A DNA stretch of 64,000 nt from an uncultured delta proteobacterium (GCA_963815115.1 CAWFFN010000012.1:150590-214589); one strand, 5' to 3'; counted from the stretch's first letter, positions 1-36,484 are shown. The notes: generated from the sequence alone by a model not told the origin. Program-made: numbers and translations.

Positions 1-1401
1 GTCTACGAGCATGCCCCCGCGAACGAGGCTCTGGGCACGGTGCGCGCGTTCGAGGATCTGCCGCTGTTCTCCGGCCGCTCCACGCTCGAGGGCCTCTACA
101 TGCAGGGCTCTCCGACGTCGCCGTTCGTGTTCTACATCCAGTCGGAGATCTCGGAGGCGCAGTCCTGTCCGTTCCCCGACTGGCACTGCACCCGCTTCGA
201 CCTGGACCGCGGCCTCGACCATCTCCGCATGCTCAACGTCTCCCACTTCATCGTCCGCAGCGACGCGGTGAAGAAGGCGGCAGCGAAGCACCCCGGCTTG
301 CAGCACGAGGCCGACGTCGGCCCGTACGTCATCTACCGCATCCTCGGCAACGACGGCCGCTACGCCGTGCCGCTCACGGAGGCGCCGCAGCTGATCCTGG
401 GCAAGGACTGGAAGGACGTCTCGTATCGCTGGTTTCGCAGCGCCCGCCCGGACTCGGTGATCCCGGTCTTCGCGGAGAGCGTGACGCCGGAGGAGCAGGC
501 GCTGTTCGGCGGGACGTCGACCGACCTCCCGGCCGACATGCCGCACCGCTCGCTCGGGCCTCCTGCCGAGCTCACGGAGCACATGGCGGCGCAGGACCGC
601 ATCACCATCGACGGGACGCGTCCCGGTCAACCGGTCCTGATCCGCATCTCCTACCACCCGCGCTGGAGGGCGCTCACGGGCGAGAAGATCTGGCTCGCGG
701 GTCCGAGCTTCATGCTGGTCTTCCCGCGCGGCGACCGCGTCGAGCTGGAGTTCGGCAGCGGGCCGCCGGTCGTCCTGGGGCACGTCCTGACCGCGGTCGG
801 ACTGCTCGTCTTCCTGCTCGCCGTGCTCCCCAGCCGCCGGAGGCTCGGCGCGCTGCTGGCGGAGACGGGGGGGCGCGTCGGCTCCCTCGCGCCGGCGCGC
901 TGGGTCGTCGAGCCGATCAAGCGCACCGCGGCCTGGGGACCGGGGAGGCGTCGCGCAGCCCTGGCGCTCGCCATCGCGGTCAGCGTGGCGGTGGTCGGAT
1001 TCGCGACCGTCGTCAAGCGCAAGGTGCCCGCCGATCAGGTCTATCTGAAGGGCCAGGCGCTGTTCAACGCCGGGAAGATGGCGGAAGCGCGGCCGTACTT
1101 CCAGGAAGCCCAGCGCATGGCGCCGCTCTCGACGACGGCGATCCATTCGGCATACTTCGAAGGCATCACCTACATCCGCGAGAACAAGTGGAAGGAAGCG
1201 GAGGACGTCTTCACGCGGCTGGTCGCTCGCTTCCCGGACGGCCTGAACGCGCCCGAGGCGCAGTACCACGTCGGGCTCTGCCGGCAGCAGCGCGGCGATC
1301 GCGCGGGCGCGATCGCGGCCTGGGAGGAGACGCGCACGCGCTTCCCGGACAGCCCGTGGGCGGGGCACGCGAGCGAGCGGCTCGCCGAAATCCGCCGATG
1401 A
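1..1401 (+). CDS. Membrane protein with C-terminal TPR domain, 5'-truncated by the window edge; first gene of the envelope sugar-modification operon
   Basis: Frame 1 is open from base 1. The protein-like sequence has TM segments (LTAVGLLVFLLAVL; ALALAIAVSVAVVGF) followed by TPR-like repeats (YLKGQALFNAGKMAEARPYFQEAQ...). Its stop overlaps the next start (ATGA). Confidence 0.55.
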   Translation, partial: VYEHAPANEALGTVRAFEDLPLFSGRSTLEGLYMQGSPTSPFVFYIQSEISEAQSCPFPDWHCTRFDLDRGLDHLRMLNVSHFIVRSDAVKKAAAKHPGLQHEADVGPYVIYRILGNDGRYAVPLTEAPQLILGKDWKDVSYRWFRSARPDSVIPVFAESVTPEEQALFGGTSTDLPADMPHRSLGPPAELTEHMAAQDRITIDGTRPGQPVLIRISYHPRWRALTGEKIWLAGPSFMLVFPRGDRVELEFGSGPPVVLGHVLTAVGLLVFLLAVLPSRRRLGALLAETGGRVGSLAPARWVVEPIKRTAAWGPGRRRAALALAIAVSVAVVGFATVVKRKVPADQVYLKGQALFNAGKMAEARPYFQEAQRMAPLSTTAIHSAYFEGITYIRENKWKEAEDVFTRLVARFPDGLNAPEAQYHVGLCRQQRGDRAGAIAAWEETRTRFPDSPWAGHASERLAEIRR

Positions 1402-2276
1402 AGGTCGTGTTTCATGCCGACGATTTCGGCCTGACCGCGGCCATCAACGACGGCATCCTCGAAGCCTACGAGCGCGGCGTCCTGCGCAGCACCTCGCTCA
1501 TCGTGACGGCCGAGGCGGCGGCGCACGGCGTCGCGGCTGCCAGGACGGCTCCCGGGCTGGACGTCGGAGTCCATCTCACCCTGGTCGAGGAGCGTCCCGT
1601 GCTTCCGCCCGAGCGCGTCCCGACTCTCGTCGCCGGCGACCGGTTCCTGCCGACCCACGCCGCGGTCGGCGCGCGCTTCCTGACGGGACGCTGGCGGCCC
1701 GCGGAGGCACGCGCCGAGCTCGCCGCGCAGCTCGAGCGATTCGCCGCATCGGGCCTCGTGCCGTCTCATCTCGACGGGCACCAGCACCTCCACCTCCTGC
1801 CGGGCGTGCTGCCCTTCGTCGTCACCGAGGCGCGACGGCGCGGCATCCGCTTCGTGCGCACGGCGCTCGGGGACGCCGCCTCCCGACCCGCGCAGGCGGT
1901 GCGTGCCCTGACCCTGCACGCCACCAACGCCGTGTCGCGGCTCGCGTCGCGCGGCGTGGCTCCGGCGGAGCGCCGCGGCCTGATCCCGTTCCGGACCATC
2001 GGGTTCCTGCATGCCGGTGGCGGCATGACGCTCGCGGATCTCCTCGCAGCGCTCGACCGAGTCGGGCGGCGATCGCCGGCCGAGGTCGTCGAGGTGATGC
2101 TCCATCCCGGCCGGCGCGACGCCGAGACCGAGCGGCGCTACCGGCACTGGGGATATCGCTGGGAGAACGATCTCGCCCTCCTGCTGGACGCGAGGCTGCC
2201 GGATGCCCTCGCGCGGCGCGGAATCGAATGGACGTCCTTCCGCGCCCTCGCGACCGCCAGCGAGCTTCGCTCGTGA
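1398..2276 (+). CDS. YdjC/ChbG-family carbohydrate deacetylase (HpnK-like)
   Basis: N-terminus MKVVFHADDFGLTAAINDGILEAYERGVLRSTSLIV and the HLDGHQHLH motif are typical of YdjC/HpnK deacetylases. 4-nt ATGA overlap with the upstream gene. Confidence 0.8.
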   Translation: MKVVFHADDFGLTAAINDGILEAYERGVLRSTSLIVTAEAAAHGVAAARTAPGLDVGVHLTLVEERPVLPPERVPTLVAGDRFLPTHAAVGARFLTGRWRPAEARAELAAQLERFAASGLVPSHLDGHQHLHLLPGVLPFVVTEARRRGIRFVRTALGDAASRPAQAVRALTLHATNAVSRLASRGVAPAERRGLIPFRTIGFLHAGGGMTLADLLAALDRVGRRSPAEVVEVMLHPGRRDAETERRYRHWGYRWENDLALLLDARLPDALARRGIEWTSFRALATASELRS

Positions 2277-2294
2277 GCCTGCCGCATCGGTGCC

Positions 2295-3389
2295 GTGATG
2301 GCTGAGCGCTCGTGGAGCACCCGGAGCTACGTCCCCGCCGATGTGGACGGCATCCTCGCGTTGCGCCGGGCGGTCTTTGGCGACCTCGACCGCGTGCGGC
2401 TGAAGCCCGACATCTGGCGCTGGCAGTTCGTCGACAACCCTGCCGGCGCCGGCTACGTCCGGCTCGCCGAGCGCGACGGGACGATCGTGGGTCAGTACGC
2501 GGCGATCCCCACCCGCTTCCGGCTGAACGCCGGGGCAGGGGAGGAGCGGATCTTCGCGATGTCCTGCGACACCATGACCCATCCCGACTACCAGCGGCAG
2601 GGCATGTTCGTCACGCTGGCCCAGGAGCTCTACGCCGAGCTCGCGGATCAGCACGGGGTGTCCACCGTGTGGGGATTCCCCAACGCCGCCTCGCACCCCG
2701 GATTCGTCGGCCGTCTCGGCTGGTTCGACATCCACGTGTTCCCCACCCGCGTGAAACCCATCCGCAGCGCGCCCGTGTTCAAGCGCTACCTCCGCTGGGG
2801 CGTGCTCTCCGGGGCGCTGGGCGCGCTCGCCGACCGCGCCTACCAGCTCGCCACCCCTCGTGTCGCGCCGCCTCGGCGCTGCGAGATCCGCCCGCTGGCG
2901 TCGTTCGACGAGCGCTTCGACGCCCTCTGGCTGCGCCATCGAGCGCTGGCGCCGATCGTGCAGGTCCGCACCCGCGACCATCTCAACTGGCGCTACTGCG
3001 CGGTGCCGGAGTTCGGCTACCGTCCGTTCGCCGTCTTCGTCGGCGGCGCGCTCGAGGGCTACGTCGTGGTCCGCACCCTGACGCTCTTCGATCTTCCCTT
3101 CGCGGCCATGGTCGATCTCTTTCCCTGCCCGGTGGTCGACGCCGAGATCACGCGCGAGGTGCTGAGCTTCGCGCAGATCGAGGCGGAGCGCGCGGGCGCG
3201 GCGTTCCTGACCGCGTTGCTGCCGCCCGCGCACGCCTCGCATCTCACTCGCTTCGGCTTCCTGAAGGTCCCCGGCTTCCTGAACCTCCGGCCCTGGTATC
3301 TCGGCGCGCGCTGCCCGGCGGCCGACCAATCCCTGCTGCGCGACATCGACCACTGGTACGTCACCTATGGCGACGCCGACATCGTCTGA
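2295..3389 (+). CDS. GNAT-family N-acetyltransferase (~364 aa, extended)
   Basis: Acetyl-CoA-binding-like motif DYQRQGMFVTLAQELYAELADQHGVSTVWGFPN. Protein-like composition, unlike the overlapping R/P-rich shadow ORFs. Confidence 0.65.
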   Translation: MMAERSWSTRSYVPADVDGILALRRAVFGDLDRVRLKPDIWRWQFVDNPAGAGYVRLAERDGTIVGQYAAIPTRFRLNAGAGEERIFAMSCDTMTHPDYQRQGMFVTLAQELYAELADQHGVSTVWGFPNAASHPGFVGRLGWFDIHVFPTRVKPIRSAPVFKRYLRWGVLSGALGALADRAYQLATPRVAPPRRCEIRPLASFDERFDALWLRHRALAPIVQVRTRDHLNWRYCAVPEFGYRPFAVFVGGALEGYVVVRTLTLFDLPFAAMVDLFPCPVVDAEITREVLSFAQIEAERAGAAFLTALLPPAHASHLTRFGFLKVPGFLNLRPWYLGARCPAADQSLLRDIDHWYVTYGDADIV

Positions 3390-4083
3390 CGCCCGCACCC
3401 CCTTCACCGTCGGCATCCCGGTGTACAACGAGGAGGCGATCCTGGTCCCCAACACCGAGCGCCTGCTCGCCTACCTCGACCGCTTCGGACGCCAGTACGA
3501 GGTGCTCATCGGGTCCAACGGCTCGACCGACTCGACGACGGCGCTCGGCATCGACCTGACCCGGCGCTTCCCGCAGGTCGCGTTCTTCCACGTGCCGGAG
3601 CGTGGCGTGGGGCTGGCCTTCCGCGAGTTCATTCGCCAGGCACGCTATCCCCTGCTCGTCTCGGTCGACATGGATCTCTCCATCGACCTCGACTTCGTCA
3701 AGCGCGCCCTCACCCTGCTCGAGGATCACGACATCGTCGTCGGCTCGAAGAAGCTCGGGAAGCAGAAGCGGTCGTTCGTGCGGCGCGTCGCGTCCGACAC
3801 CTTCCTCCGCATTGCCCGCGTGCTGCTCGGCATCGACTACGACGACTACTCGATCGCGGCCAAGGGCTACCGCGTCGAGACCGTGCGCCGCTTCGCGGAT
3901 CGCATCAACGAGGGCTCGTCGTACGTCATCGAGATGTGCTTCCTCACCAAGCGGGCCGGCGGACGGATCGTCCAGATCCCGGTGGAATGCGAGGACTGGC
4001 GCAAGTCGAAGTTCAACCTGGTGCACGAGGCGTTGTACAAGTACACCCATCTCGTCGGGCTCTGGCTGCGCGGGGGGCGATGA
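3367..4083 (+). CDS. Family-2 glycosyltransferase (polyprenyl-phosphate sugar synthase-like, DPM1/ArnC-like)
   Basis: FTVGIPVYNEEAILVPNTERLLAYLD...YEVLIGSNGSTDST...SVDMDLS are GT2 hallmarks (DxD-like region). Size 238 aa. Confidence 0.8.
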   Translation: MATPTSSDARTPFTVGIPVYNEEAILVPNTERLLAYLDRFGRQYEVLIGSNGSTDSTTALGIDLTRRFPQVAFFHVPERGVGLAFREFIRQARYPLLVSVDMDLSIDLDFVKRALTLLEDHDIVVGSKKLGKQKRSFVRRVASDTFLRIARVLLGIDYDDYSIAAKGYRVETVRRFADRINEGSSYVIEMCFLTKRAGGRIVQIPVECEDWRKSKFNLVHEALYKYTHLVGLWLRGGR

Positions 4084-4493
4084 GCGACGCGGCGCTCGAG
4101 GCCGAGGCTCGCATCTTCGGCCGCTACCTGGTCGGCCGCCCGCCGGAGCCGGCGCTCGTGGCGCGCTACGGCGCGGCTTGCCGGACGCTCTGGCCGTCAC
4201 CGCCCGGGCCGCGCGACGCGGCCGTGCTGGCGTTCGTGCGGCGGCGTCCCTGGAGCATCGGGCCGCTCGACGCGGCTGCCGCGCTGCTCGACCCCGGCGG
4301 TCTCCTGCGCAGCAAGGTGCTGGTGATGAGCGCCCTGCTCGAGGCGACGCCGGCCCACGCGGACGACTTCCTGCCGCGCGCGGCGTCGACCCCGGCACTG
4401 CTCTGGCGGCTGGCGGCGTCGGGCGCCGTCGCGGTCGCCCAGGCGGCCGCCGGCGTATTGCTCTATCGGCTCGCCGCCCGCGCGCGCGCATGA
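4080..4493 (+). CDS. Hypothetical small protein (137 aa)
   Basis: ATGA-coupled at both ends (upstream stop 4081-4083, downstream start 4490). Composition is borderline. Confidence 0.45.
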   Translation: MSDAALEAEARIFGRYLVGRPPEPALVARYGAACRTLWPSPPGPRDAAVLAFVRRRPWSIGPLDAAAALLDPGGLLRSKVLVMSALLEATPAHADDFLPRAASTPALLWRLAASGAVAVAQAAAGVLLYRLAARARA

Positions 4494-6094
4494 CCGACGT
4501 GATCGTCGTCGGCTCGGGCCCGGGAGGGACCAACGCCGCGGCCCGCCTCGTCGAAGCGGGCCGCAGCGTGCTGATGCTCGACTTCGGGAACCGTGACGCG
4601 CGCTATGCCGATCTCGTTCCCGACCGGCCGTTCCTCCAGATCCGCCACGAGGACCGGGAGCAGCATCGCTATCTCCTCGGCGAGACGTTCGAGGGCATCC
4701 CCTTCGGCGCCGTACGGGTCGGCGCGCAGCTGACGCCGCCGCGCAGCTATGCCCTGGCCGACGCGCCCGAGCGCATGCCGGTCGACGCGCCGGGCTTCGC
4801 GGTCTCGATGAGCCTGGCACGCGGCGGGCTCGGGGTGGCGTGGGGAGCCGGGGTGTTCCCGTTCTCCGACGACGAGCTGCGCGCGATGCATCTCGACCTG
4901 GCGACGATGCAGCCGCACTACGACGCCGTCGCGGCGCGCATCGGCGTGGCGGGCGCGCGGGACGACCTGCTGCGCTTCTACCCCCCCAGCCCGGACATGA
5001 TGCCGGCGCTCGACGCCGACACCAACGGCACGATCGTGCTCGAGCGCTACCTGCGCCAGCGTGCCCGGCTCAACGCCGACGGGTTCTTCCTCGGCCGGCC
5101 GCGCATCGCGGTGTGCTCGGAGCCGTTCCGGGGGCGGCTGGCGTACCCCTACTACGACCTCGATTTCTGGTCCGACCCCGGGCGCAGCATCTACCGCCCG
5201 ATGTGGACCCTGGACGAGCTCGAGCGGAAGCCCGGCTTCACCTATCGGCCGCGCTGCCTCGTTCGCGGCTTCGTGGAGGACGGGGCGGGTGTGCGCGTCG
5301 AGGCGACGCACGCCGACACCGGCGCGCGCGAGCGCCACGAGGCGCGGGCCCTCGTGCTCGCGGCCGGGACCTTTGGCACCGCCCGTCTGGTCCTGCGCTC
5401 GCTCGAGCGCTACGACACGCCGGTGCCGCTGGTCTCGAACCCCTACACGTACGTGCCGACGCTGAACCTCGGCATGATCGGGCGGCCGACGCGCGACCCG
5501 CGCTCGAGCCAGGGCCAGCTGACGGCAATCCTCGAGCGCCAGGAGCCGTGGCATCGCCTGGTGCAGGCGCAGGTCTTCTCCTATCGCTCGCTCCTGACCT
5601 TCAAGCTCATGAAGGAGCTGCCCCTCGCGGCGCGCCAGTCGCGCCGCATGCTCCAGGTTCTCATGCCGTGCTTCGCCATCCTCGGGATTCACCACGAGGA
5701 CCGGCCGGGCGCCGCCAAGACGTGCACGCTCCGGCGGGGCCCGGGCGACGGTCCGGACACGCTCGCCATCCGCTACCAGCCCAGCGAGGAGGAGGAGCAC
5801 ATGCAGCGGGAGGACGAGAGAGCGCTGCTGCGCTGCTTCCGGCGGCTCGGCTGCCTGCCGCTCAAGCGCATCCGGCCGGGACACGGCTCCAGCATCCACT
5901 ACGCCGGGACGTTCCCGATCACGGCCGAGGACCGCCCGCTCACCTGCGACCACGACAGCCGGCTGCGCGGCACCCGCGCCGTGTACCTGGCGGACGGCTC
6001 GGTCTTTCCCTGGCTGCCGCCGAAGGGCCTCACCTTCAACATCATGGCGAACGCCGATCGCGTCGGTGCCATCGTCGCGGAGCGGCTGCAATGA
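4490..6094 (+). CDS. FAD-dependent oxidoreductase, GMC family-like
   Basis: N-terminal Rossmann MTDVIVVGSGPGGTNAAARLVEAGRSVLMLD and C-terminal HYAGTFPI...ADGSVFP motifs are typical of GMC oxidoreductases. Start overlaps the upstream stop. Confidence 0.75.
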   Translation: MTDVIVVGSGPGGTNAAARLVEAGRSVLMLDFGNRDARYADLVPDRPFLQIRHEDREQHRYLLGETFEGIPFGAVRVGAQLTPPRSYALADAPERMPVDAPGFAVSMSLARGGLGVAWGAGVFPFSDDELRAMHLDLATMQPHYDAVAARIGVAGARDDLLRFYPPSPDMMPALDADTNGTIVLERYLRQRARLNADGFFLGRPRIAVCSEPFRGRLAYPYYDLDFWSDPGRSIYRPMWTLDELERKPGFTYRPRCLVRGFVEDGAGVRVEATHADTGARERHEARALVLAAGTFGTARLVLRSLERYDTPVPLVSNPYTYVPTLNLGMIGRPTRDPRSSQGQLTAILERQEPWHRLVQAQVFSYRSLLTFKLMKELPLAARQSRRMLQVLMPCFAILGIHHEDRPGAAKTCTLRRGPGDGPDTLAIRYQPSEEEEHMQREDERALLRCFRRLGCLPLKRIRPGHGSSIHYAGTFPITAEDRPLTCDHDSRLRGTRAVYLADGSVFPWLPPKGLTFNIMANADRVGAIVAERLQ

Positions 6095-6969
6095 GTGCCG
6101 CCGCGAAGGTGGTCGCCGTGACCGGCGCCTCCGGATTCATCGGCGGCGCACTGTGCCGGATGCTGGCCGGCCGCGGCTGGGAGGTTCGCGCGCTGGTGCG
6201 CTCACCGGAGCGCTTCACGGGCGTCCCGGGCGTGCGTCCCGCGCGCTGCGACCTGCCGGACTCGATCGACGAGACGGCGCTCGCCGGTGCGGCGGCCGTC
6301 GTGCACTGCGCCTACGCCACGCGCGAGACCGACCTCGAGCGGGCGCGGCGGGTGAACGAGGACGGCACGCGCGTGCTCCTGGAGAGAGCGCGCCGCGCGG
6401 GCGCGCGCGTGGTGTTCGTCTCGACGATCGCCGCCGCCGCGGACGCGCCCAGCTACTACGCGCGCAGCAAGCACGCCCTCGAGGAGCTCTTCGACCCGGC
6501 GCGCGACGCGATCGTGCGTCCCGGCCTGGTGATCGGCCCGGGCGGCCACGGGCTCTTCCAGCAGCTGCTCGACAACATGCGCCGGCTGCGCGTCGTTCCG
6601 CTGTTCGGCGGGGGCCGCCAGCCCCTGCAGACCGTGCACGTGGACGATCTGTGCGAGGCCATCATCCGCGTCCTGGAGCGCGACCTGAGCGGCGCCTACA
6701 ACGTCGCGGAGCCGGATCCGCCGACGCTCGGTGCGTTCCTGCGCACGATGGCGGCGAGGCTCGGCATCCGCTGCGTGTTCGTGCCGCTGCCGTTCGCGCC
6801 CGTCCTCGCCGGCGTGCGGGCGCTGGAGGGGATGCGCGTGCCGTTTCCTCTCAGGTCGGAGAGCCTCCTCGGGTTGCAAGGGCTGCGGCGCGTCGCCGTC
6901 GACGACGATCTCCGCCGCCTCGGACTCCGGGTGCGTCCCGCGGCGGAGAGCCTCGCTTCGGTGGATTGA
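6091..6969 (+). CDS. NAD-dependent epimerase/dehydratase
   Basis: VVAVTGASGFIGGALCRML Rossmann motif and a YxxxK region (YYARSKHALEE). ATGA overlap with the upstream gene. The last 131 nt are repeated at 10014-10146. Confidence 0.8.
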   Translation: MSAAAKVVAVTGASGFIGGALCRMLAGRGWEVRALVRSPERFTGVPGVRPARCDLPDSIDETALAGAAAVVHCAYATRETDLERARRVNEDGTRVLLERARRAGARVVFVSTIAAAADAPSYYARSKHALEELFDPARDAIVRPGLVIGPGGHGLFQQLLDNMRRLRVVPLFGGGRQPLQTVHVDDLCEAIIRVLERDLSGAYNVAEPDPPTLGAFLRTMAARLGIRCVFVPLPFAPVLAGVRALEGMRVPFPLRSESLLGLQGLRRVAVDDDLRRLGLRVRPAAESLASVD

Positions 6970-6984
6970 AGGGCGGAGCTGGGC

Positions 6985-9885
6985 TCAACCCTCGTGCCCG
7001 AGGCAGCCGGGCATGAGCTGGAGCTGGAGCGTATCGACCTGGTGCAGGTGCGCCACCGCGAGGTAGTCCCCCTGCGCGGCGAGCGCCGAGGTGCCGGTCG
7101 TCCCGAGCGCCAGGAGCTTGGTCAGGTTCTCCCGCACGAGCAGCTTTCCGGTCTCGTCCTGGATCGAGAGCCGTGCCGCCTGCGGCGAGAGCGTCGCGAC
7201 CCATCCGTTCCCCACGGCGATCGGTGAGCAGTCGCCCAGCCGGACTCCCCAGCCAGGCGACACCACCGCCGGGAAGCGCCGCACGATCGTTCCCGAGCCG
7301 GTATCGAGGACCTGGATCTCCTGCTCGGCCGAGGCGAGGAAGAGCAGGTCCCCGCTGGCGGCGATCCCCGTCCATGCGCCTTCCGGCAGGGGCCACGGGG
7401 GCGCGGGAGCGGCGCTCAGCCGGCCGCTGAGAGCGTCGACGGCCCACCAGGTATCGCGCGCGAACGCGGCGCATGCGTGTCCGATGCTGTCGGGCAGTGC
7501 CGGCACCTGCGTGCGGGCGGCCAGAGCCCCCTTCCCGATGCGCGTCTCGCCGCCATGACGGTCGAGCAGCCGCACCACCGGTGCGCTGCCGTCCCGGGTG
7601 TCGACGCCCATCGCGACCGGCTCCTGGACCGTGAACTTGTGCGGGCCCACGCTCACGAAGTCGTAGCTTCCGACGATCCAAACGGGGACGGCACCCTGCC
7701 CGGGCAGGCTGCCGAGAGAGAGCGCATCGTTGGCCTGATTGCTCGATCCCCTCTTCACCAGGTTCGCGCACCCCCGTGCGGCATCGAGGCTCAGGAACTG
7801 CTCGAGGGCGTTCCGTGTCTCGGGCCACCTCGAGCGCGGCGTCCGGATCTGGAGGGGAGGAACGCCTTCCTCCGCGGGCCGTTGCCCCGCGACCCCGAGC
7901 GGCGGCTCGGCCAGGCTGACCGGCGTTCCGCCCGCGGCCTGAAGTCGGTTGGCGAGCGCGAGCTCCCAGCGGGTAGGGTGCCTGAACTCCCAGACGATGG
8001 TCTCGGCATCGCCGGTCCGGATCTGCGCGTCGAGATAGGTGAGCGGCGACTTGACGTCGGAGGCATACAGCCTGAGCACGCTCGGGAGCGAGGTCTCGCG
8101 GTCGACGTTGCGGAGCGCCGAGTACAGATCGATGAACCGCTCCGGCTTGCCAGCGCCGAGCGCCGCCAGCTTGCCGTACAGGCGAAGCCCCCCCGGCGCG
8201 GTCGGATTCTCGCGCTGCTCGTCGCTGTCCACGAGCACGACCGAGCTCCCGCCCGCGATCTCGTGCCCCCAGCGCCGGCCGTCGCGCGCGCATCCGAGGC
8301 ACGTGATGCCGTCGCCGAAGCCGCTCTCGCCGAAGGGGATCTTCGTTCCGTGAGCCGGGGGCAGGGCGGCGTACAGCAGGCCCAGGCCGCCACCGGACCA
8401 TGCGGCGAGCGCCAGGACCGCACCAGCGAACACCGTGCGCCGCGCGCCGGGCGATACCTCGACGAGGGGACGCATGCGGGCGAGGACGACGCCGCCGTGC
8501 GCGGCGAGGGCGCACCATGCCAGGTCGAAGATCAGGAAGCGCCGCGCGGTGGCCGCGCTGAGGACCGGCAGGGCGAGACCGCCGAGCGCGAGCGCGATCC
8601 AGAGATACCAGGCTCTGAGCGCTCGCAGCCTGGCGAGGCCGATGAGCCCCAGGAGAACCACCGGCAGGAGGCACAAGCCTCCGTGCGCGAAACCCGGGTC
8701 CAGCGCCGTCCCCGGACCCGTTGCCGGTCGTTCCCAGAGCGCGTTCAGATCCTCCGCTCGTCCGTTCCAGAAGTACGTCCGCAGCGTCGGCGCCAGCTGT
8801 TGGCGCAGGTTGTCGTGGATGCTGCCGAGCAGCGTGCCGTAGATCACCTCGGAGCGGTTTCCGACATAGCCGGGATAGCGCGGCCACAGCGATGCCAGCG
8901 TCGGCATTCCCACGGCGAGCACGCCGGCGGCCACGAACCCCGATCCCAGGCACAGTGGAAGCACCACCCACTGGCGGCGCACGGATCCCGCCGCACGCAT
9001 CCCCGCGAGCAACGCCAGGAGCGAGAGCGGGATCGCGACCCGCGCGGCGTAGTAATGGTAGACTGACGTGCACGCGACCACACCGGCCAGGAGCGCCAGC
9101 GCGATGCTCCGCGCGCATCCCGCCGCGCGCATCCCCGCGAGCAGCGCCAGGAGCGAGAGCGGAATCGCGACCCGCGCGGCGTAGTAGTCATAGACCGACG
9201 TCCACGCGACCACACCGGCGAGGAGCGCCAGCGCGACGCTCCTGCGCGAGCCGGCGCGATGGGCGAGCCAGAGGACGAGGAGCGTGTGGGGAACCGCCGC
9301 GATCTGCAGCCCGCCGAGGCGTGCCCAGGTGATCTGCAACGGGGAGACGGCGACCAGTCCCGCGAACGCGAGGCCGAACGCCGGCGACACGACCGCCCGC
9401 CCGACGAGCCAGGCCAGCACGACGGCGAGGATCCCGCACAGGCTCCCGATGTACTGCGGCAGCTCGAGCGACGGTCCCAGGGTGGCGACGGCGAGCGCGT
9501 TCACCGGCACCATGACGGCGGATTCCTGGGGCCAGTTCACCTGCGTCGAGGAGAGCACCGTCCTCCAGCGGTCCCACAGGCCGCCCTTCACGAGCAGTGT
9601 GGCGGCGTCCACCACGCCCGCTTCGGGGAAGAACAAGCGCGGCTGGTGCTCGGAGGTCGCGAAGAGGGTCCGCAGGAGTGCGGCGAGCACGACGATGCCG
9701 AGGAGGAGGCCCAGCTCCTGGCGCCGCGGGATGGGAGGGATCGCGGGGACCGGCCGGCGGCGCCCCCGGATCGACGCCACGACGATCGCGAGCACGATCA
9801 GGGCCCCGAGCACGATGAGCCCTCGCTCTGCGCGGCCCGAGAGCTCGAGCCAGCGCAGCGCGCCGACCGGGACAGGCGGCTGCAC
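6985..9885 (-). CDS. GT-C fold membrane glycosyltransferase-like protein (GT39/ArnT/PMT-like N-terminus, large periplasmic C-terminal domain), paralog 1 (966 aa)
   Basis: Multi-TM N-terminal half resembles the ArnT/PMT lipid-carrier-dependent glycosyltransferase architecture. About 500 aa of hydrophilic C-terminus. About 90% identical to the downstream paralog. Confidence 0.65.
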   Translation of the reverse strand: MQPPVPVGALRWLELSGRAERGLIVLGALIVLAIVVASIRGRRRPVPAIPPIPRRQELGLLLGIVVLAALLRTLFATSEHQPRLFFPEAGVVDAATLLVKGGLWDRWRTVLSSTQVNWPQESAVMVPVNALAVATLGPSLELPQYIGSLCGILAVVLAWLVGRAVVSPAFGLAFAGLVAVSPLQITWARLGGLQIAAVPHTLLVLWLAHRAGSRRSVALALLAGVVAWTSVYDYYAARVAIPLSLLALLAGMRAAGCARSIALALLAGVVACTSVYHYYAARVAIPLSLLALLAGMRAAGSVRRQWVVLPLCLGSGFVAAGVLAVGMPTLASLWPRYPGYVGNRSEVIYGTLLGSIHDNLRQQLAPTLRTYFWNGRAEDLNALWERPATGPGTALDPGFAHGGLCLLPVVLLGLIGLARLRALRAWYLWIALALGGLALPVLSAATARRFLIFDLAWCALAAHGGVVLARMRPLVEVSPGARRTVFAGAVLALAAWSGGGLGLLYAALPPAHGTKIPFGESGFGDGITCLGCARDGRRWGHEIAGGSSVVLVDSDEQRENPTAPGGLRLYGKLAALGAGKPERFIDLYSALRNVDRETSLPSVLRLYASDVKSPLTYLDAQIRTGDAETIVWEFRHPTRWELALANRLQAAGGTPVSLAEPPLGVAGQRPAEEGVPPLQIRTPRSRWPETRNALEQFLSLDAARGCANLVKRGSSNQANDALSLGSLPGQGAVPVWIVGSYDFVSVGPHKFTVQEPVAMGVDTRDGSAPVVRLLDRHGGETRIGKGALAARTQVPALPDSIGHACAAFARDTWWAVDALSGRLSAAPAPPWPLPEGAWTGIAASGDLLFLASAEQEIQVLDTGSGTIVRRFPAVVSPGWGVRLGDCSPIAVGNGWVATLSPQAARLSIQDETGKLLVRENLTKLLALGTTGTSALAAQGDYLAVAHLHQVDTLQLQLMPGCLGHEG
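8995..9260. repeat. In-frame tandem duplication (~130 bp x2) inside paralog 1
   Basis: Two adjacent near-identical DNA units starting ccccgcgagcARcgccaggagcgagagcgg at ~9001 and ~9133. They encode the repeated 43-aa segment ALALLAGVVAWTSVYDYYAARVAIPLSLLALLAGMRAAG and account for the 966 versus 923 aa length difference. Confidence 0.8.
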
Positions 9886-10013
9886 GTCGTGTCTTGTGCG
9901 CGCCGGCGCCGAATGCTGTCAAGAAGGAAGCGGAACGTTCATGCTCGCGCACGGCGTGCCACCGCGAGCAGGCTCGCTCCGACGTTCGGCGCGGAGAGTC
10001 ACGCCCGCGTGCG

Positions 10014-10146
10014 AACGCCGTTTCCTCTCAGGTCGGAGAGCCTCCTCGGGTTGCAAGGGCTGCGGCGCGTCGCCGTCGACGACGATCTCCGCCGCCTCGG
10101 GCTCCGGGTGCGTCCCGCGGCGGAGAGCCTCGCTTCGGTGGATTGA
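10014..10146 (+). pseudogene. Duplicated 3' remnant of the NAD-epimerase gene (encodes the last ~44 aa, ...PFPLRSESLLGLQGLRRVAVDDDLRRLGLRVRPAAESLASVD)
   Basis: Nearly identical to 6838-6969. No upstream coding body. Confidence 0.7.
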
Positions 10147-10160
10147 AGGGCGGAGCCGGC

Positions 10161-12932
10161 TCAACCCTCGTGCCCGAGGCAGCCGGGCATGAACTGGAGC
10201 TCGAGCGCATCGACCCGGTTCCGGTGCCCGACGGCGAGGTAGTTCCCGTCAGCGGCGAGCGCGGAGGTGCCCGTCGTTCCGAGCGACAGCAGCTTCGTCA
10301 GGTCCTCGCGCACGAGCAGCTTTCCGGTCTCGTCCTGGATCGAGAGCCGTGCCGCCTGCGGCGAGAGCGTCGCGACCCATCCGTTCCCCACGGCGATCGG
10401 TGAGCAGTCGCCCAGCCGGACTCCCCAGCCAGGCGACACCACCGCCGGGAAGCGCCGCACGATCGTTCCCGAGCCGGTATCGAGGACCTGGATCTCCTGC
10501 TCGGCCGAGGCGAGGAAGAGCAGGTCCCCGCTGGCGGCGATGCCCGTCCATGCGCCTTGCGGGAGGGGCCACTGCGGGGCGGGAGCGGCGCTCAGCCGGC
10601 CGCTGAGAGCGTTGACGACCCACCAGGTGCCGTGCGCGAACGCGGCGCACGCGTGTCCGATGCTGCCGGGCAGTGCCGGCACCTGCGTGCGGGCGGCGGG
10701 GATCCCCTTCCCGATGCGCATCTCGCCCCCATGGCGGTCGAGCAAACGCACCACGGGCGTGCTGCCGTCCCGGGTCTCGACGCCCATCGCGACCGGTTCC
10801 TGGACCGTGAGCTTCAGCTTGCCCAGGCTCACGAAGTCGTAACTTCCGACGATCCACGAGGGGTTGGCACCCTGCCCGGGCAGGCTGCCGAGCACCGAGA
10901 GCGCATCGTTGTCCTGATCGCTCGATCCCCGCTTCACCAGGGTCGCACAGCCGCGATCGGCATCGAGGCTCATGAACTGCTCGAGAGCCGCGCGTGCCTC
11001 GGGCCACCTCGAGCGCGGCGTCCGGATCTGGAGGGGAGGAACGCCTTCCTCCGCCGGTCGTTCCGCCCCGACCCCGAGCGGCGGCTCGGCCAGGCTGACG
11101 GGCGTTCCGCCCGCTGCCTGGAGCCGATTGGCGAGCTCCAGCTCCCACCGCGTCGGATCCCTGAACTCCCACACGACGGTCTCGGCATCGCCGGCCCGGA
11201 TCTGCGCGTCGAGATACGTGAGGGGCGACGCGACATCGTCGGCGTAGAGCCGGCGCACGCTCGGGAGCGCAGTCTCGCGGTCGACGTTGCGCAGCGCCGA
11301 GTACAGATCGATGAACCGCTCCGGCCTGCCGGCGCCGAGCGCCGCCAGCGTGCCGTAGAGACGAAGCCCCCCCGGCGAGGTGGGATTCTCGCGCTGCTCG
11401 TCGCTGTCCACCAGCACGACCGAGCTGCCGCTCGCGATCTCGTGCCGCCAGCGCCGGCCGTCGCGCGCACATCCCAGGCACGTCAGCCCGTCGCCGAAAC
11501 CGCTCTCACCGAAGGGGATCCTCGTTCCGTGGGCCGGCGGCAGGGCGGCGCACAGCAGACCCAGGCCGCCTCCGGACCACGCGGCGAGCGCAAGGACCAC
11601 GCCCGCGAACAGCGTGCGCCGCGCGCCGGGCGATGCCTCGACGAGGGGACGCATGCGGGCGAGAACGACGACGCCGTGCGCAGCGAGGGCGCACCATGCC
11701 AGGTCGAAGATCAGAAAGCGCCGCGCGGTGGGCGCGCTGAGGACCGGCAGGGCGAGGCCTCCGAGCGCGAGCGCGATCCAGAGATACCAGGCTCTGAGGG
11801 CTCCAAGCCTGGCGAGGCCAACGAGCCCCAGAAGGGCAACCGGAAGGAGACACAATCCGCCGTGGGCGAACCCGGCGTCGAGCGCCGTCCCGGGACCGGT
11901 GGCCGGCAGCTTCCAGAGCGCGTTCAGGTCTTCCGCTCGCCCGGTCCAGAAGTACGTTCGAACCGCCGGGACCAGCTGCTGTTTCAGGTTGTCGTGGACA
12001 CTGCGGAGCACCTCGCCGTACGTCTCCTCGGAGCGGTTGCCGACATAGCCGGCATAGCGCGGCCAGAGCGATGCCAGCGCCGGCATTCCCCCGGCGAGGA
12101 CGCCGGCGACCGCGAAGCCCGATCCCAGGCACAGTGGAAGCACCAGCCACTGGCGGCGCACGGATCCCGCCGCGCGCATCCCCGCGAGCAGCGCCAGGAG
12201 CGAGAGCGGAATCGCGACCCGCGCGGCGTAGTAGTCATAGACCGACGTCCACGCGACCACACCGGCGAGGAGCGCCAGCGCGACGCTCCTGCGCGAGCCG
12301 GCGCGATGGGCGAGCCAGAGGACGAGGAGCGTGTGGGGAACCGCCGCGATCTGCAGCCCGCCGAGGCGTGCCCAGGTGATCTGCAACGGGGAGACGGCGA
12401 CCAGTCCCGCGAACGCGAGGCCGAACGCCGGCGACACGACCGCCCGCCCGACGAGCCAGGCCAGCACGACGGCGAGGATCCCGCACAGGCTCCCGATGTA
12501 CTGCGGCAGCTCGAGCGACGGTCCCAGGGTGGCGACGGCGAGCGCGTTCACCGGCACCATGACGGCGGATTCCTGGGGCCAGTTCACCTGGGTCGAGGAG
12601 AGCGCGACCTTCCAGCGGGTCCACAGGCCGCCCTTCACGAGCAGTGTGGCGGCGTCCACCACGCCCGCTTCGGGGAAGAACAAGTGCGGCTGCTGCTCGG
12701 AGGTCGCGAAGAGGGTCCGCAGGAGTGCGGCGAGCACGACGATGCCGAGGAGGAGGCCCAGCTCCTGGCGCCGCGGGATGGGAGGGATCGCGGGGACCGG
12801 CCGGCGGCGCCCCCGGATCGACGCCACGACGATCGCGAGCACGATCAGGGCCCCGAGCACGATGAGCCCCCGCTCTGCGCGGCCCGAGAGCTCGAGCCAG
12901 CGCAACGCGGCGACCGGGACAGGCGGCTGCAC
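10161..12932 (-). CDS. GT-C fold membrane glycosyltransferase-like protein, paralog 2 (923 aa)
   Basis: Same architecture as 6985-9885. Lacks the internal 43-aa duplication. Confidence 0.65.
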   Translation of the reverse strand: MQPPVPVAALRWLELSGRAERGLIVLGALIVLAIVVASIRGRRRPVPAIPPIPRRQELGLLLGIVVLAALLRTLFATSEQQPHLFFPEAGVVDAATLLVKGGLWTRWKVALSSTQVNWPQESAVMVPVNALAVATLGPSLELPQYIGSLCGILAVVLAWLVGRAVVSPAFGLAFAGLVAVSPLQITWARLGGLQIAAVPHTLLVLWLAHRAGSRRSVALALLAGVVAWTSVYDYYAARVAIPLSLLALLAGMRAAGSVRRQWLVLPLCLGSGFAVAGVLAGGMPALASLWPRYAGYVGNRSEETYGEVLRSVHDNLKQQLVPAVRTYFWTGRAEDLNALWKLPATGPGTALDAGFAHGGLCLLPVALLGLVGLARLGALRAWYLWIALALGGLALPVLSAPTARRFLIFDLAWCALAAHGVVVLARMRPLVEASPGARRTLFAGVVLALAAWSGGGLGLLCAALPPAHGTRIPFGESGFGDGLTCLGCARDGRRWRHEIASGSSVVLVDSDEQRENPTSPGGLRLYGTLAALGAGRPERFIDLYSALRNVDRETALPSVRRLYADDVASPLTYLDAQIRAGDAETVVWEFRDPTRWELELANRLQAAGGTPVSLAEPPLGVGAERPAEEGVPPLQIRTPRSRWPEARAALEQFMSLDADRGCATLVKRGSSDQDNDALSVLGSLPGQGANPSWIVGSYDFVSLGKLKLTVQEPVAMGVETRDGSTPVVRLLDRHGGEMRIGKGIPAARTQVPALPGSIGHACAAFAHGTWWVVNALSGRLSAAPAPQWPLPQGAWTGIAASGDLLFLASAEQEIQVLDTGSGTIVRRFPAVVSPGWGVRLGDCSPIAVGNGWVATLSPQAARLSIQDETGKLLVREDLTKLLSLGTTGTSALAADGNYLAVGHRNRVDALELQFMPGCLGHEG

Positions 12933-13052
12933 GTCGTGGCTTGTGCGCCCCGGCGCCGAATGCTGTCAAGAAGGAAGCGGAACGTTCATGCTCGCGCACG
13001 GCGTGCCACCGCGAGCAGGCTCGCTCCGACCGGCAGCGGTACGCCAGCCGGG

Positions 13053-13472
13053 TCAGGGGGCGCCGCTCTTCCCGCCGTCGCCGAGCAGCCGCGCTCGCGT
13101 CCCCGCGACGTCGACGAGCGGCTGCTTGCGCAGGCGCTCGACCTCCGCCGCGGTGTACGGGGTGAAGTCCGCGGGCACGTGGGCGTGATCGAAGCGCTCC
13201 AGCAGCCAGTTGAGCACCGCGGCCAGCGCCGCGTCGTCGAGCGGCGCCTGCGCGACGCCGGGCACGCGCGCGAGGTAGTCGCGGCCGCCCGGCGCGGCGA
13301 GGAAGCGCGCGACCGACCCCTGCAGCGCGGGAACGCTGCCGGGCGTGCTCGTGCCGTCGGCGCGGTGGCAGCCCTCGCAGTTGAGCGTGTAGTCGAGCGC
13401 CGGTCCGCTCGCCGCGCCGGCGAGCGGCGCGATCCCGACGACGGCCGCCAGCGCGGCGCCAGCGCGCCACAT
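13053..13472 (-). CDS. Monoheme c-type cytochrome (signal peptide plus CEGCH heme-binding motif)
   Basis: CXXCH motif after a signal peptide (MWRAGAALAAVVGIAPLAGAAS). Lies 4 nt downstream of mauA on the same strand. Confidence 0.7.
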   Translation of the reverse strand: MWRAGAALAAVVGIAPLAGAASGPALDYTLNCEGCHRADGTSTPGSVPALQGSVARFLAAPGGRDYLARVPGVAQAPLDDAALAAVLNWLLERFDHAHVPADFTPYTAAEVERLRKQPLVDVAGTRARLLGDGGKSGAP

Positions 13473-13475
13473 CGG

Positions 13476-14025
13476 CTACGACTTCGTCGCCACGCCCAGC
13501 ACGACTGCGACCGAGCAGTTGACGGCGCGGCTCTTGGTACCGAAGCACCACAGCAGGTCGTTGTTCCTGGAGGTGTAGTACACGGGCCGCTCGCCCTCGG
13601 TACGCGAGCAGCGGCATCGCATGCAGAGGGACTGCCCGCAGCAGTCGTTGTACGAGATGATGTAGTCCTTGCCGTCGCCGGGATGGCGGCACGTGCCGAT
13701 CCAGGTGACCGGCGACATCTCCGTCCCCGGCGGGCAGGTGTTCTGCGAGCCGCCGCAGCACGAGCACAGGAACCCGTCGATGGCGCAGTGGCGCCAGTAG
13801 CTGCAGCTCTGGGGATCGCCCGCCGGGGCCTCGAGGCGGGCATCGTCGGGCGCCGGGACCCGCGACTCGTCATCCGCCGCGCGTGCCACCGGCAGCAGCG
13901 GCAGTGCCGCGGCGCCGACCAGCGCCGCACCGGCGCGCGCGAGCACGCTCCGGCGCGACGTGCGCCGCGCGAGCGCGCGGGCGCTCCGTTCCACCAGGCG
14001 ATCCATCCAGCCGCGCCCGTCGTTC
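13476..14025 (-). CDS. mauA: Methylamine/aralkylamine dehydrogenase light (small, TTQ-bearing) subunit
   Basis: Strong match to MauA signature blocks: SYWRHCAIDGFLCSCCGG...CPPGT...YNDCCG...ERPVYY...LLWCFG. Tat-like leader RRSVLARAGAALVGAAALPL. Start overlaps the mauD stop. Confidence 0.85.
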
Positions 14026-14644
14026 ATCGCCGTGCGACCTCCGTGCGCTCCTCGACGCCGCGCAGGAACTCCTGGATCGAGGCGACGCCCCGCTCCTGCG
14101 CCTCGAAGAGGCTCTCCAGGTGCTCGCGCGTGTTCACCAGACCCTTGGCGCGCACCGTGCCGGAGCCGTCGACGAGCGCGGCATAGGGCAGCTTTCCCAC
14201 CTGCCATCGCATGCCGAGCTCCGGCGACAGCAGATACGGGAACGCATCCAGGCGCTCGGCACGCACGAACGCCTCGTGCTCCGCGCGCGGACCGTCACTC
14301 GCGAGCACGAGGTCGAGCCACGCCGTCTCGCGCCGGGCGATGCCGCGCAGCGCAGGCAGGAGCGTCTTGCAGACCGGGCAGGTGGGCGACAGGAAGAAGA
14401 GGAGGGTGCTCCGGCCGTCGTCGCGCGGGGCGCCGATCTCGTGCAGGCGGGCGCCGAGATCCTCCGCCTGGATCACGGGCGCCGCCGCGCCGACCGTCGG
14501 ACCGCGTCCGAGGAGCAGCGCGCCTGCCGGCGCCACGCGCTCATAGAGGACGCCGATCTGGCGGGTGAGGGCCACGACCACGCAGGCCAGCACCACGACG
14601 GCGATCCACAGCACGATCGTCGAGACCACGAGCGCCTGCGTCAC
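14024..14644 (-). CDS. mauD: MauD, thioredoxin-like methylamine utilisation protein
   Basis: N-terminal TM helix plus thioredoxin-fold with CPVC motif (LLFFLSPTCPVCKTLLPAL). GTG start overlapping the mauE stop (GTGA). Only the C-terminal 207 codons of the 888-aa ORF 14024-16690 are protein-like. Confidence 0.75.
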   Translation of the reverse strand: MTQALVVSTIVLWIAVVVLACVVVALTRQIGVLYERVAPAGALLLGRGPTVGAAAPVIQAEDLGARLHEIGAPRDDGRSTLLFFLSPTCPVCKTLLPALRGIARRETAWLDLVLASDGPRAEHEAFVRAERLDAFPYLLSPELGMRWQVGKLPYAALVDGSGTVRAKGLVNTREHLESLFEAQERGVASIQEFLRGVEERTEVARR

Positions 14645-15177: not shown

Positions 15178-15180
15178 GGC

Positions 15181-16419: not shown

Positions 16420-16541
16420 GGCCGTCCGTCTCACCGAGGACAGTCCGAGAGGCACGAGGCGGGCGTATAGCATGCACGACCCGTCGCGGAACACGGCCGA
16501 CCTTGACCGGCCTCGTACGGCATCCACATACTCCGATCGCG

Positions 16542-17994: not shown

Positions 17995-18000
17995 GGTCAC

Positions 18001-36419: not shown

Positions 36420-36484
36420 GTCCGCAGCTGGCGTCAGCCCTCCACTCCGTTCAGGCCGCCTCGGTTGATCGTGGCGAGGCCGCG

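Follow-up and report, generated by a model that had tools for sequence, protein, structure and literature searches.

A candidate locus for the tailoring of polyprenyl-phosphate-linked aminosugars in an uncultured member of Candidatus Binatia

What might a bacterium build with a locus in which a YdjC-family deacetylase, an acyltransferase, a small glycosyltransferase (GT) of family GT2, two oxidoreductases and large membrane proteins of the GT-C type stand side by side? The question is raised by a 64,000-nucleotide (nt) stretch of DNA from an uncultured delta proteobacterium (GCA_963815115.1 CAWFFN010000012.1:150590-214589), the whole of which we call the window; the features treated here are those of its positions 1-13031, with genes A to G on the plus strand and genes H and I on the minus strand. 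We propose, at a probability of about one half, that this locus encodes an envelope glycosylation system in which an aminosugar is tailored while attached to polyprenyl phosphate and is then transferred in the periplasm, the evidence being comparison with related loci and structure prediction. An initial annotation of the same DNA had already suggested a lipid-carrier aminosugar system ending in transfer by a GT-C protein. The gene set fits this suggestion, but the GT-C protein with the tightest link to B, C and D is A (8/8 contexts of the C family) and not H or I, to which the transfer had been assigned.

As the G+C content of the window is 71-75%, genes were called from the G+C content of third codon positions (GC3 frame analysis) and then checked against Pfam; the gene coordinates and domain calls of the initial annotation were right by both. 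Genes A to G form one compact operon on the plus strand, packed without gaps. ATGA overlaps were found at four junctions (A/B, D/E, E/F and F/G) and C overlaps D by 23 nt; the overlap of A with B, taken with those at D/E, E/F and F/G, indicates that the operon extends from A to G. The annotation had placed it at 1398-6969, rightly recognizing the packed genes but overlooking the 137-residue gene E (4080-4493). G and H are convergent, with 15 nt separating their stop codons, and a scan of 6900-13200 for promoters and terminators gave nothing exceeding chance.

Genes A to D and their relatives

Gene A (1..1401, plus strand, its 5' end lying beyond the window) encodes the C-terminal 466 residues of a membrane protein that had been described as a TPR protein. 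Several TPR families do match in Pfam, the TPR domain being BamD/YbgF-like, but residues 8-113 also match PF10131 (PTPS_related) at 33.3 bits against a cutoff of 26.4, a family of the GT-C clan (CL0111) without known function (PMC7801869). A periplasmic domain follows, and then two further transmembrane (TM) helices at 257-275 and 320-338; the TM topology puts the TPR domain in the periplasm. Full-length orthologues are polytopic proteins of 860-920 residues that match PF10131 at 130.7 bits. A GGD motif directly after TM1, in a part of A that lies outside the window, is invariant in all ten PF10131-type sequences aligned, and by its orthologues A is thus a GT-C protein that passes the catalytic loop motif check proposed in the initial annotation for H and I.

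Gene B (1398..2276, plus strand) encodes a carbohydrate deacetylase of 292 residues which, as had been annotated, is a full-length YdjC-family protein (PF04794, E 3.7e-61; 207.8 bits against a cutoff of 29.7, covering profile positions 1-265 of 266). The motifs HADDFG, GVHLTL and HLDGHQHLH, which we take to be catalytic, are visible in its sequence, its solved relatives are EF_3048 and chitooligosaccharide deacetylase, and it has neither a TM helix or other hydrophobic segment nor a signal peptide. Gene C (2295..3389, plus strand) encodes a GNAT acyltransferase of 364 residues (Acetyltransf_9, E 1.5e-14) with a C-terminal extension of ~220 residues; no solved relative was found for it by sequence search. 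Gene D (3367..4083, plus strand) encodes a small, soluble GT2 of 238 residues (PF00535, E 3e-15, 57 bits) in which a DMD motif is visible. The top seven of its nine PDB sequence hits are ArnC, Pyrococcus furiosus DPMS and GtrB, with ArnC the closest (E 2.8e-08), which bears out its earlier classing as a GT2 of the polyprenyl-phosphate synthase type, and it scores 39 bits with the NCBIfam model of ArnC, whose cutoff is 529. Its soluble format is like that of DPM1 and PpgS. From these matches, D is predicted to be a polyprenyl-phosphate N-acetylhexosamine (HexNAc) synthase.

These genes travel together. The C family comprises 162 hits in two tiers, one in Binatia with 61-91% identity and one with 43-48% identity in genomes labelled Deltaproteobacteria or Desulfacyla; orthologues of D and A adjoin C in 8/8 contexts and YdjC was called or detected in 6/8. 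Orthologues of D have 73-84% identity in Binatia and 47-50% in Desulfobacterota-like loci, always with A adjacent, and A and D lie side by side in every locus that carries them. A unit made up of a CARDB-like protein and A, B, C and D is therefore common to Binatia and Desulfobacterota-like genomes. All five non-Binatia contexts encode a CARDB-like anchored protein, a B12-binding radical SAM protein and a GNAT protein, divergently from a GT2 of 230-241 residues and a PF10131+TPR protein of 860-890 residues, with YdjC called in four of the five; the identity of this module to the genes of the window is 33-35% for A, 35-42% for B, 45-47% for C and 47-50% for D. The CARDB-like protein (264-285 residues) has a signal peptide and a C-terminal TM anchor, and shows 25-30% identity between the Binatia and Desulfobacterota-like groups. 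Its gene adjoins the A/B/C/D module in several Binatia (loci L082, L008, L004 and L020 of our comparison) and in all five Desulfobacterota-like loci (L082:3449-4261, L008:3042-3833, L124:6296-7108, L125:4929-5786 and L126:4930-5763, for example). As it precedes A in the Binatia loci L082 and L008, the corresponding position here is just left of the window. The CARDB-like protein may be an acceptor or a partner of the GT-C protein.

The initial annotation could match the gene combination to no described pathway, yet its core has one. The NaxD route starts with a GT2 that charges undecaprenyl phosphate with HexNAc, continues with de-N-acetylation of the carrier-bound sugar by a YdjC-family enzyme and ends with periplasmic transfer by a GT-C enzyme; NaxD itself, a member of the YdjC family, deacetylates undecaprenyl-phosphate-N-acetylgalactosamine (undecaprenyl-phosphate-GalNAc) for the modification of lipid A (PMC11279074). 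The core of GT2, YdjC and GT-C is thus already described. From its context, between a GT-C protein and a GT2 of the polyprenyl-phosphate type, B is predicted to be a NaxD-type deacetylase of polyprenyl-phosphate-HexNAc.

This likeness could be taken further, and the locus read as a cationic modification system for lipid A or the core of lipopolysaccharide, of the FlmF2-NaxD-FlmK or LgmABC type (Francisella/Bordetella/Acinetobacter) or the Arn type, in which D, B and a GT-C protein put a free hexosamine on lipid A phosphates and the other genes are incidental. The constant GNAT partner of the deacetylase speaks for re-acylation of the amine, and with it for loss of the positive charge on which the lipid A route turns. 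Although the composition of GT2, YdjC and GT-C is that of the described NaxD route (PMC11279074), ArnC is the closest solved relative of D, and H, I and several neighbouring GT-C proteins show weak matches of the PMT_2/ArnT type, the CARDB-like protein is also a constant partner, the GT-C protein is not ArnT-like and no ArnA/B, lpx or PmrAB-type genes lie nearby. We consider a lipid A system improbable.

The radical SAM proteins of the Desulfobacterota-like modules bear on a different reading. The analogy to HpnI and HpnK of hopanoid synthesis drawn in the initial annotation gains some support from the radical SAM, squalene-hopene cyclase (shc) and HpnG-like genes of relatives, although all of the hopanoid matches fall below the curated cutoffs. 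HpnK (TIGR03473) is the best named NCBIfam match of B, end to end, at 178.7 bits against a cutoff of 232.6 (133.6 bits for the L126 orthologue). The radical SAM protein, a B12-binding protein of 458-473 residues, is encoded beside the GNAT gene, and between GNAT and YdjC where the latter is called; HpnJ is its joint-best NCBIfam match, with 124-143 bits over the full length, but the cutoff is 577.6 and BchE scores as well as HpnJ does. Moreover, in L126, L127 and L128 a distance of 0.3-4 kb separates the module from shc (809.6 bits in L126) and a gene for an HpnG-like phosphorylase (145.8 bits against a cutoff of 187.1), in the regions L126:1756-4604, L127:3305-6144 and L128:454-3326, and the synthesis of bacteriohopanetetrol cyclitol ether needs hpnI, hpnK and hpnJ (PMC5462960). 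The CARDB-like protein and A to D might accordingly be regarded as a variant of HpnI-HpnK-HpnJ that places N-acetylhexosamine on bacteriohopanetetrol, deacetylates and remodels it, with E-F-G replacing the radical SAM step in Binatia and a hopanoid as the GT-C acceptor. This we judge to be improbable, though a rival to be taken seriously. D has no HpnI match at E <= 0.01 and is like polyprenyl-phosphate glycosyltransferases instead, and a GT-C protein, a TPR domain and a CARDB-like protein belong to no described Hpn pathway. No radical SAM gene lies within 1-13031, and no shc or hpn gene was seen among the Pfam-scanned genes of the window (16 further genes, with several stretches unscanned) or in the flanks of L082. 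L124 and L125 have no shc nearby, and L126-L128 share flanking synteny, so that they amount to about one observation.

The E-F-G cassette

Tailoring of a polyprenyl-linked sugar, the reading that we prefer, depends further on genes E, F and G. The GMC oxidoreductase and the epimerase had been annotated as the tailoring set of this particular operon; to judge from their distribution among genomes, they form, together with E, an independent cassette found in many phyla and not a set peculiar to this operon. The product of E is a conserved protein of no known family (no Pfam or NCBIfam match) with motifs conserved across phyla and one C-terminal hydrophobic helix (TM segment 111-129), encoded on the plus strand with an ATGA overlap on either side. 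We propose that it is a membrane anchor or partner of F.

Gene F (4490..6094, plus strand) encodes a GMC-type FAD sugar dehydrogenase of 534 residues that is predicted to be cytoplasmic (PF05199, GMC_oxred_C, 26.4 bits against a cutoff of 24.6). Its AlphaFold2 model (pLDDT 76.5, pTM 0.83) best matches the alpha subunit of FAD-glucose dehydrogenase (TM-score 0.73-0.75) and fructose dehydrogenase (0.69-0.75 for both together), followed by C-glycoside 3-oxidases and bacterial pyranose 2-oxidases, and the invariant H470 of F, in the motif GSSxHYxGT, aligns with the same motif in the C-glycoside oxidoreductase 8qve. Two more specific roles suggested by FAD-glucose dehydrogenase were considered and set aside: E is not a Tat 'hitch-hiker' subunit like the gamma subunit, since E is without a twin-arginine motif and F without a signal peptide, and F is probably not an Fe-S dehydrogenase like the alpha subunit, since it has a single Cys (C209) where FAD-glucose and fructose dehydrogenases carry the Cys cluster of their Fe-S motif.

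Gene G (6091..6969, plus strand) encodes an extended SDR (NAD-dependent epimerase/dehydratase) of 292 residues (PF01370, E 1.1e-24, 87.7 bits), with the motifs GASGFIGG (GxxGxxG) and YARSK (YxxxK) visible in the sequence; its nearest solved relatives are NDUFA9-type and SDR39U1 proteins. As B, D and F have no hydrophobic segment, and as F and G begin with a dinucleotide-binding motif at their very start, the tailoring steps are predicted to take place on the cytoplasmic face of the membrane.

To follow the cassette we scanned one genome per species and obtained 76 F loci, of which the 44 whose flanks reach 4 kb or more to either side of F were treated as informative; the species of the window was not among the genomes hit. 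The labels of the 76 loci include Binatia, Planctomycetota, Sumerlaeota, Opitutae, Elusimicrobia, Acidobacteriota, Vulcanimicrobiota/Eremiobacteraeota, Gemmatimonadota, Bacteroidetes, Chlorobiaceae and Nitrospira, among others. E-F-G thus occurs under labels from >10 phyla, and except in Sumerlaeota its usual neighbours are GtrB-like GT2 and GT-C genes. A homologue of E is encoded directly upstream of F in ~50/76 loci, and G accompanies F in ~50/76, usually directly downstream and, among the informative loci, within 4 kb in 34/44. Members of a GtrB-like GT2 family (~320 residues, with C-terminal TM helices) were found in 33/76 loci, typically just upstream of F, and a protein of at least 400 residues with at least seven TM helices is encoded within 7 kb of F in 29/44 informative loci, several of these polytopic neighbours matching PMT_2 or PMT above threshold. 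The gene order is GT-C, acyltransferase_3, GT2, F, G, methyltransferase, GT-C, GT-C in the Opitutae type and GT2, methyltransferase, F, G, 9-TM protein in a locus labelled Chlorobiaceae; L010 shares the order D-E-F-G with the window.

The most telling of these loci is the Phycisphaerales locus L028, which reads GT2, E, F, G, C-like GNAT, CE4 deacetylase and a multi-TM protein with TPR. It rebuilds the functional set of the window in another order and with an unrelated deacetylase, and, of all our observations, speaks most strongly for an N-acetylated aminosugar as the substrate and for joint action of the parts. The CE4 protein (PF01522 with DUF3473) is encoded within L028:12398-16632, and in the Bacteroidota locus L072 (order GT2-E-F-G-CE4) a CE4 gene detected by phmmer comes right after G (L072:9127-9999). 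Judged from sequence and position, the CE4 proteins of both loci fill the role of YdjC, as a case of non-orthologous displacement.

Genes H and I, their duplication and the host

Convergent with the operon lie gene H (6985..9885, minus strand, 966 residues) and its paralogue gene I (10161..12932, minus strand, 923 residues), whose products share 90% identity. They had been annotated as GT-C-like proteins, each with a domain of ~500 residues of no obvious family; structure prediction upholds the GT-C fold but resolves the domain into a predicted alpha/beta domain and a six-bladed NHL-type propeller. The PMT_2 matches of H (17.5 bits, E 0.005) and I (19.6 bits) are below the cutoff of 26.1 and a family profile matched no solved structure in the PDB, so that the link to GT-C is by fold comparison only. 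The family is rare, with 58 clusters among 5.8 billion proteins, all of ~900 residues. An AlphaFold2 model of I, built from 49 family members, has a pLDDT of 89.1 and a pTM of 0.89, and comprises TM0 and 13 further TM helices in a GT-C fold up to about residue 462, the alpha/beta domain at 470-655 and the propeller at 660-915. For the C-terminal 260 residues the matches are six-bladed propellers of the NHL type, with scores of 19.4 for Brat and 18.4 for the PknD sensor domain, and Foldseek agrees. On this model, we are confident that the H/I fold is that of GT-C.

Whether the fold is accompanied by a catalytic loop motif, as the initial annotation had proposed to check, can be answered from the 49 members, and H and I fail the check: position 88 is occupied by E in 32 of them, by Q in 11 and by A in four, and in five of the 49, the L002 homologue among them, the 18 residues following TM1 contain neither D nor E. 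D410 is the only invariant acid in the membrane domain. Several invariant Arg residues lie, by our reading of the topology, at the periplasmic membrane boundary, and the soluble domain carries CxxC and DxD..RE motifs.

The second check proposed there, that of co-conservation, came out in favour of a link to parts of the operon. Among 25 informative H/I loci (from metagenomes, with flanks of 2.5 kb or more), 16 have E-F-G, a GtrB-like GT2, A/D or a PMT_2 GT-C adjacent, eight of the 25 having E-F-G, and the convergent layout of H/I followed by G-F-E is kept in L106, L116 and L121 at 31-39% H/I identity. The H/I genes of L002 and L082 come with a GtrB-like GT2 of their own, which has TM helices, and with a methyltransferase, in L082 also with a gene for a polytopic protein of 582 residues. 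We take H and I to be accessory GT-C-fold proteins, of uncertain catalytic competence, that probably share the lipid-linked donor of the operon or use a related one.

The two genes arose by a tandem segmental duplication (6840-9983 against 10017-13030) that took along ~130 nt of the 3' end of G and ~98 nt upstream of the gene. The remnant of G (10017..10156, plus strand) has 99.3% identity to 6840-6979, and the region upstream of I (12933..13030, minus strand) is the counterpart of 9886-9983 upstream of H. By blastn, 9110-9983 and 12157-13030, which hold the 5' quarter and the upstream regions, are 98% identical, and the rest ~90%. Synonymous divergence (dS) rises from 0.027 in the first 250 codons to ~0.29 in codons 251-655 and stands at 0.17 in the propeller, a pattern of low 5' dS that indicates an old duplication with gene conversion at the 5' end; conversion looks to have homogenized the N-terminal TM region and the putative promoter. 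The ratio of non-synonymous to synonymous divergence (dN/dS) is 0.2-0.6, and 0.2-0.4 over most of the length, indicating that both copies are maintained. The possibility of a recent duplicate or an assembly artefact was discarded on the dS pattern and on the L082 orthologue of H, which is clearly closer to H (89-96% identity over tblastn segments) than to I. H also contains an in-frame tandem duplication of 132 nt (8978..9248, minus strand; 2.0 copies, 90% match by Tandem Repeats Finder), which lengthens H by 44 residues, some two TM helices that take in the invariant YxYxxxR stretch. Since L082, a relative with 94% identity, can be aligned across the repeat too, an artefact of assembly is improbable. 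The remnant of G is present in L082 as well (L082:15671-15820), and there the polytopic protein of 582 residues, the methyltransferase and the GtrB-like GT2 stand in the place of I.

One more explanation of the locus is that A-D, E-F-G and H/I are independent units joined by rearrangement, with E-F-G acting on something other than a lipid-linked glycan (a free glycoside, a sterol-like lipid or polyprenol itself, for example) and H/I serving as non-catalytic sensors or scaffolds. Recent rearrangement is evident in the duplication and in the segment of GT2, methyltransferase and 582-residue protein that replaces I in L082. Units are also found apart, in that E-F(-G) stands alone in Sumerlaeota, 14/44 informative F loci have neither a GT2 nor a polytopic neighbour, Desulfobacterota-like loci have A-D without E-F-G and 9/25 informative H/I loci have no glycolipid neighbour; the absence of the canonical loop acid from H/I and the resemblance of their propeller to the PknD sensor domain would suit a non-catalytic role. 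Nevertheless, D, E, F and G are joined here by ATGA translational coupling and keep the same order in L010, GT2 and multi-TM or GT-C genes lie directly around E-F-G in lineages labelled Verrucomicrobia (Opitutae, Oleiharenicola), Phycisphaerales, Acidobacteriota, Chlorobiaceae, Bacteroidetes and Myxococcus, the Phycisphaerales locus L028 brings these seven functions together again, in another order and with a deacetylase that is not homologous, and the convergent arrangement of H/I and G is kept at 31-39% identity. Such a mosaic is, in our view, unlikely.

With regard to the host, the initial annotation had named Myxococcota as the group to survey, and a myxococcal origin is rejected: the 90%-identity cluster of F includes a protein of a Candidatus Binatia bacterium, the closest homologues of F and C are likewise named, and the closest named relatives are thus Candidatus Binatia. 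The host is accordingly placed in Binatia, and a survey of Myxococcota would be misdirected. Directly upstream of I, on the minus strand at 13056-16527, lies a methylamine dehydrogenase (mau) cluster consisting of the heavy chain (15184-16527, PF06433), MauE (14644-15177), a thioredoxin-like MauD-type protein (14027-14638), the light chain (13476-14030, PF02975, E 9.6e-48) and a small cytochrome c (13056-13472). Methylamine use has been reported for Binatota (PMC8262859), with which the cluster fits, as it does with methylotrophy. The idea that H and I are part of this mauBEDA-cytochrome c cluster found no support, since their homologues elsewhere do not lie beside mau genes. Upstream of the mau genes, 17179-19741 (minus strand) encodes a classical SDR (332 residues) and an AMP-binding acyl/aryl-CoA ligase (519 residues); AMP-binding genes are also found near H/I homologues in L002 and L004. 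Further along the window, 32649-39661 and 46796-48784 encode two adjacent AAA_16 (STAND-like) ATPases of 1256 and 1090 residues, one of them with TPR, and an AAA_22 protein with a C-terminal peptidoglycan-binding domain, and 41718-44531 (minus strand) encodes an FG-GAP/PKD repeat protein of 937 residues that is probably secreted or exposed at the surface.

The proposed pathway and known systems

In the pathway that we propose, D would load HexNAc from UDP-HexNAc onto polyprenyl phosphate at the cytoplasmic face, B would remove the N-acetyl group, as NaxD does, and C would re-acylate the free amine. F, held at the membrane by E, would then oxidize a ring hydroxyl (C3 or C4) to a ketone, which G would reduce from the other face with NAD(P)H, the net result being an epimerization that follows the logic of DprE1/DprE2 with unrelated enzymes. 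The loaded carrier would cross the membrane via a flippase, and A would transfer the sugar to a periplasmic acceptor, for which the CARDB-like anchored protein encoded beside A in relatives is one candidate; H and I would contribute further proteins of the GT-C fold that share this donor or use a related one. Epimerization at the level of the carrier is established for DprE1/DprE2 and ORF13 (PMC11127046).

A number of observations weigh against this pathway. No protein of the window reaches a curated NCBIfam equivalog cutoff and no flippase candidate lies within the locus. D, having no hydrophobic segment, is devoid of the C-terminal TM helices of ArnC and GtrB. At the second catalytic Asn/His position of GMC enzymes, the 'NP' of 8qve stands opposite G513/K512 of F in the HMMER alignment, and N517 is nearly invariant but offset. 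H and I have no universally conserved acidic residue in the first periplasmic loop, and the GtrB-like GT2 and methyltransferase that usually partner their homologues, like the 582-residue protein of L082, were not found in the 64-kb window, where I takes their place. B and C are missing from the Binatia loci L004 and L006-L008, which retain A and D and E-F-G, so that the parts are separable, and the occurrence of E-F(-G) in Sumerlaeota without GT2 or GT-C means that the cassette may not be confined to lipid-linked sugars. Finally, the presence of shc and an hpnG-like gene beside the orthologous module in one Desulfobacterota-like lineage points to hopanoids.

A broader proposal can be put forward only tentatively, as we consider it possible but rather less than evenly probable: that E-F-G is an undescribed cassette of >10 phyla which epimerizes or otherwise redox-tailors polyprenyl-phosphate-bound hexosamines, a non-homologous counterpart of DprE1/DprE2 that feeds GT-C enzymes, and that in Binatia it supplies a new family of GT-C proteins with an NHL propeller (H/I) that work without the loop-1 acid, the acceptor being the CARDB-like protein or a hopanoid. 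In literature searches over a limited set of papers we found no system of GMC, SDR, GtrB and GT-C and no description of E-F-G and its coupling to GtrB-like and GT-C proteins, of the module of CARDB-like, PF10131-TPR, YdjC, GNAT and GT2 proteins, or of a GT-C family with an NHL propeller and no conserved loop-1 acid.

Tailoring of sugars at the level of the carrier is known from few systems (Arn, NaxD, DprE1/E2 and the pentofuranose three-component systems) and is relevant to antibiotic resistance and as a source of drug targets. If the proposal is true, E-F-G would be a second, unrelated oxidase/reductase solution, widening the known chemistry of periplasmic glycosylation, and three families without a role (E, PF10131 and H/I) would gain one. 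The coupling of E-F-G to GtrB-like synthases and GT-C proteins recurs under the labels Binatia, Opitutae, Planctomycetota, Acidobacteriota, Elusimicrobia, Bacteroidetes, Myxococcus and others, and two cultured carriers, Oleiharenicola lentus and Myxococcus sp. RHSTA-1-4, make the cassette testable. Should the hopanoid link hold instead, the locus would reveal a new way of making composite bacteriohopanepolyols, compounds that serve as geobiological markers.

Compared with known systems, the three roles of FlmF2-NaxD-FlmK, LgmABC and the Acinetobacter NaxD system are fitted by D, B and A. The GT-C protein here is a PF10131 protein with TPR and not ArnT-like, the constant GNAT partner means that the amine is probably re-acylated, an oxidase/reductase cassette is added and the context contains no lipid A genes. 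With ArnC-ArnD-ArnT the locus shares a D protein to which ArnC is closest and de-N-acylation on the carrier before GT-C transfer; ArnD belongs to the CE4 (Polysacc_deac_1) family, as does the Pfam match of the L028 and L072 deacetylases. Unlike the Arn pathway, it has no nucleotide-sugar chemistry of the ArnA/ArnB kind, D is without the TM helices of ArnC and the redox steps are predicted to act on the lipid-linked sugar and not on a UDP-sugar. In Mycobacterium tuberculosis, PpgS (Rv3631), a soluble GT2 of ~240 residues, makes polyprenyl-phosphate-GalNAc beside a small membrane protein (Rv3632), and a GT-C enzyme (Rv3779) moves galactosamine to arabinan; no deacetylase is known for that pathway, nor is a GMC/SDR pair known to take part in it.

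HpnI-HpnK-HpnJ resembles the Desulfobacterota-like relatives in its clustered GT2, YdjC and B12 radical SAM genes, once beside shc and an hpnG-like gene, whereas the window locus is without radical SAM, D is not HpnI-like and GT-C, TPR, CARDB-like and GNAT proteins are foreign to Hpn. The TMTC1-4 and PMT O-mannosyltransferases are GT-C proteins with TPR or MIR domains, from which the present system differs in being bacterial and in its predicted donor, an aminosugar and not mannose, while a protein acceptor is a guess. Burkholderia cepacia FAD-glucose dehydrogenase (gamma-alpha) and Gluconobacter fructose dehydrogenase hold a GMC catalytic subunit and a small partner at the membrane, as proposed for E and F; in contrast, E and F are predicted to be cytoplasmic, there is no cytochrome subunit and E has no detectable similarity to the gamma subunit.

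In DprE1/DprE2 and ORF13, a flavoprotein oxidase and an SDR reductase epimerize a sugar attached to polyprenyl phosphate, feeding GT-C enzymes (PMC11127046), and F and G likewise lie beside a polyprenyl-phosphate GT2 and GT-C genes. Neither DprE1 nor DprE2 appeared in the hit lists of F and G. DprE1 is a flavoprotein of the VAO/PCMH type, whereas F has the GMC fold; G is an extended, NDUFA9-like SDR and DprE2 a classical one; E is a third partner; and the carrier sugar would come from a GT2 and a nucleotide sugar rather than from a transferase dependent on phosphoribosyl pyrophosphate. The resemblance of F and G to DprE1/DprE2 is one of function and not of descent.

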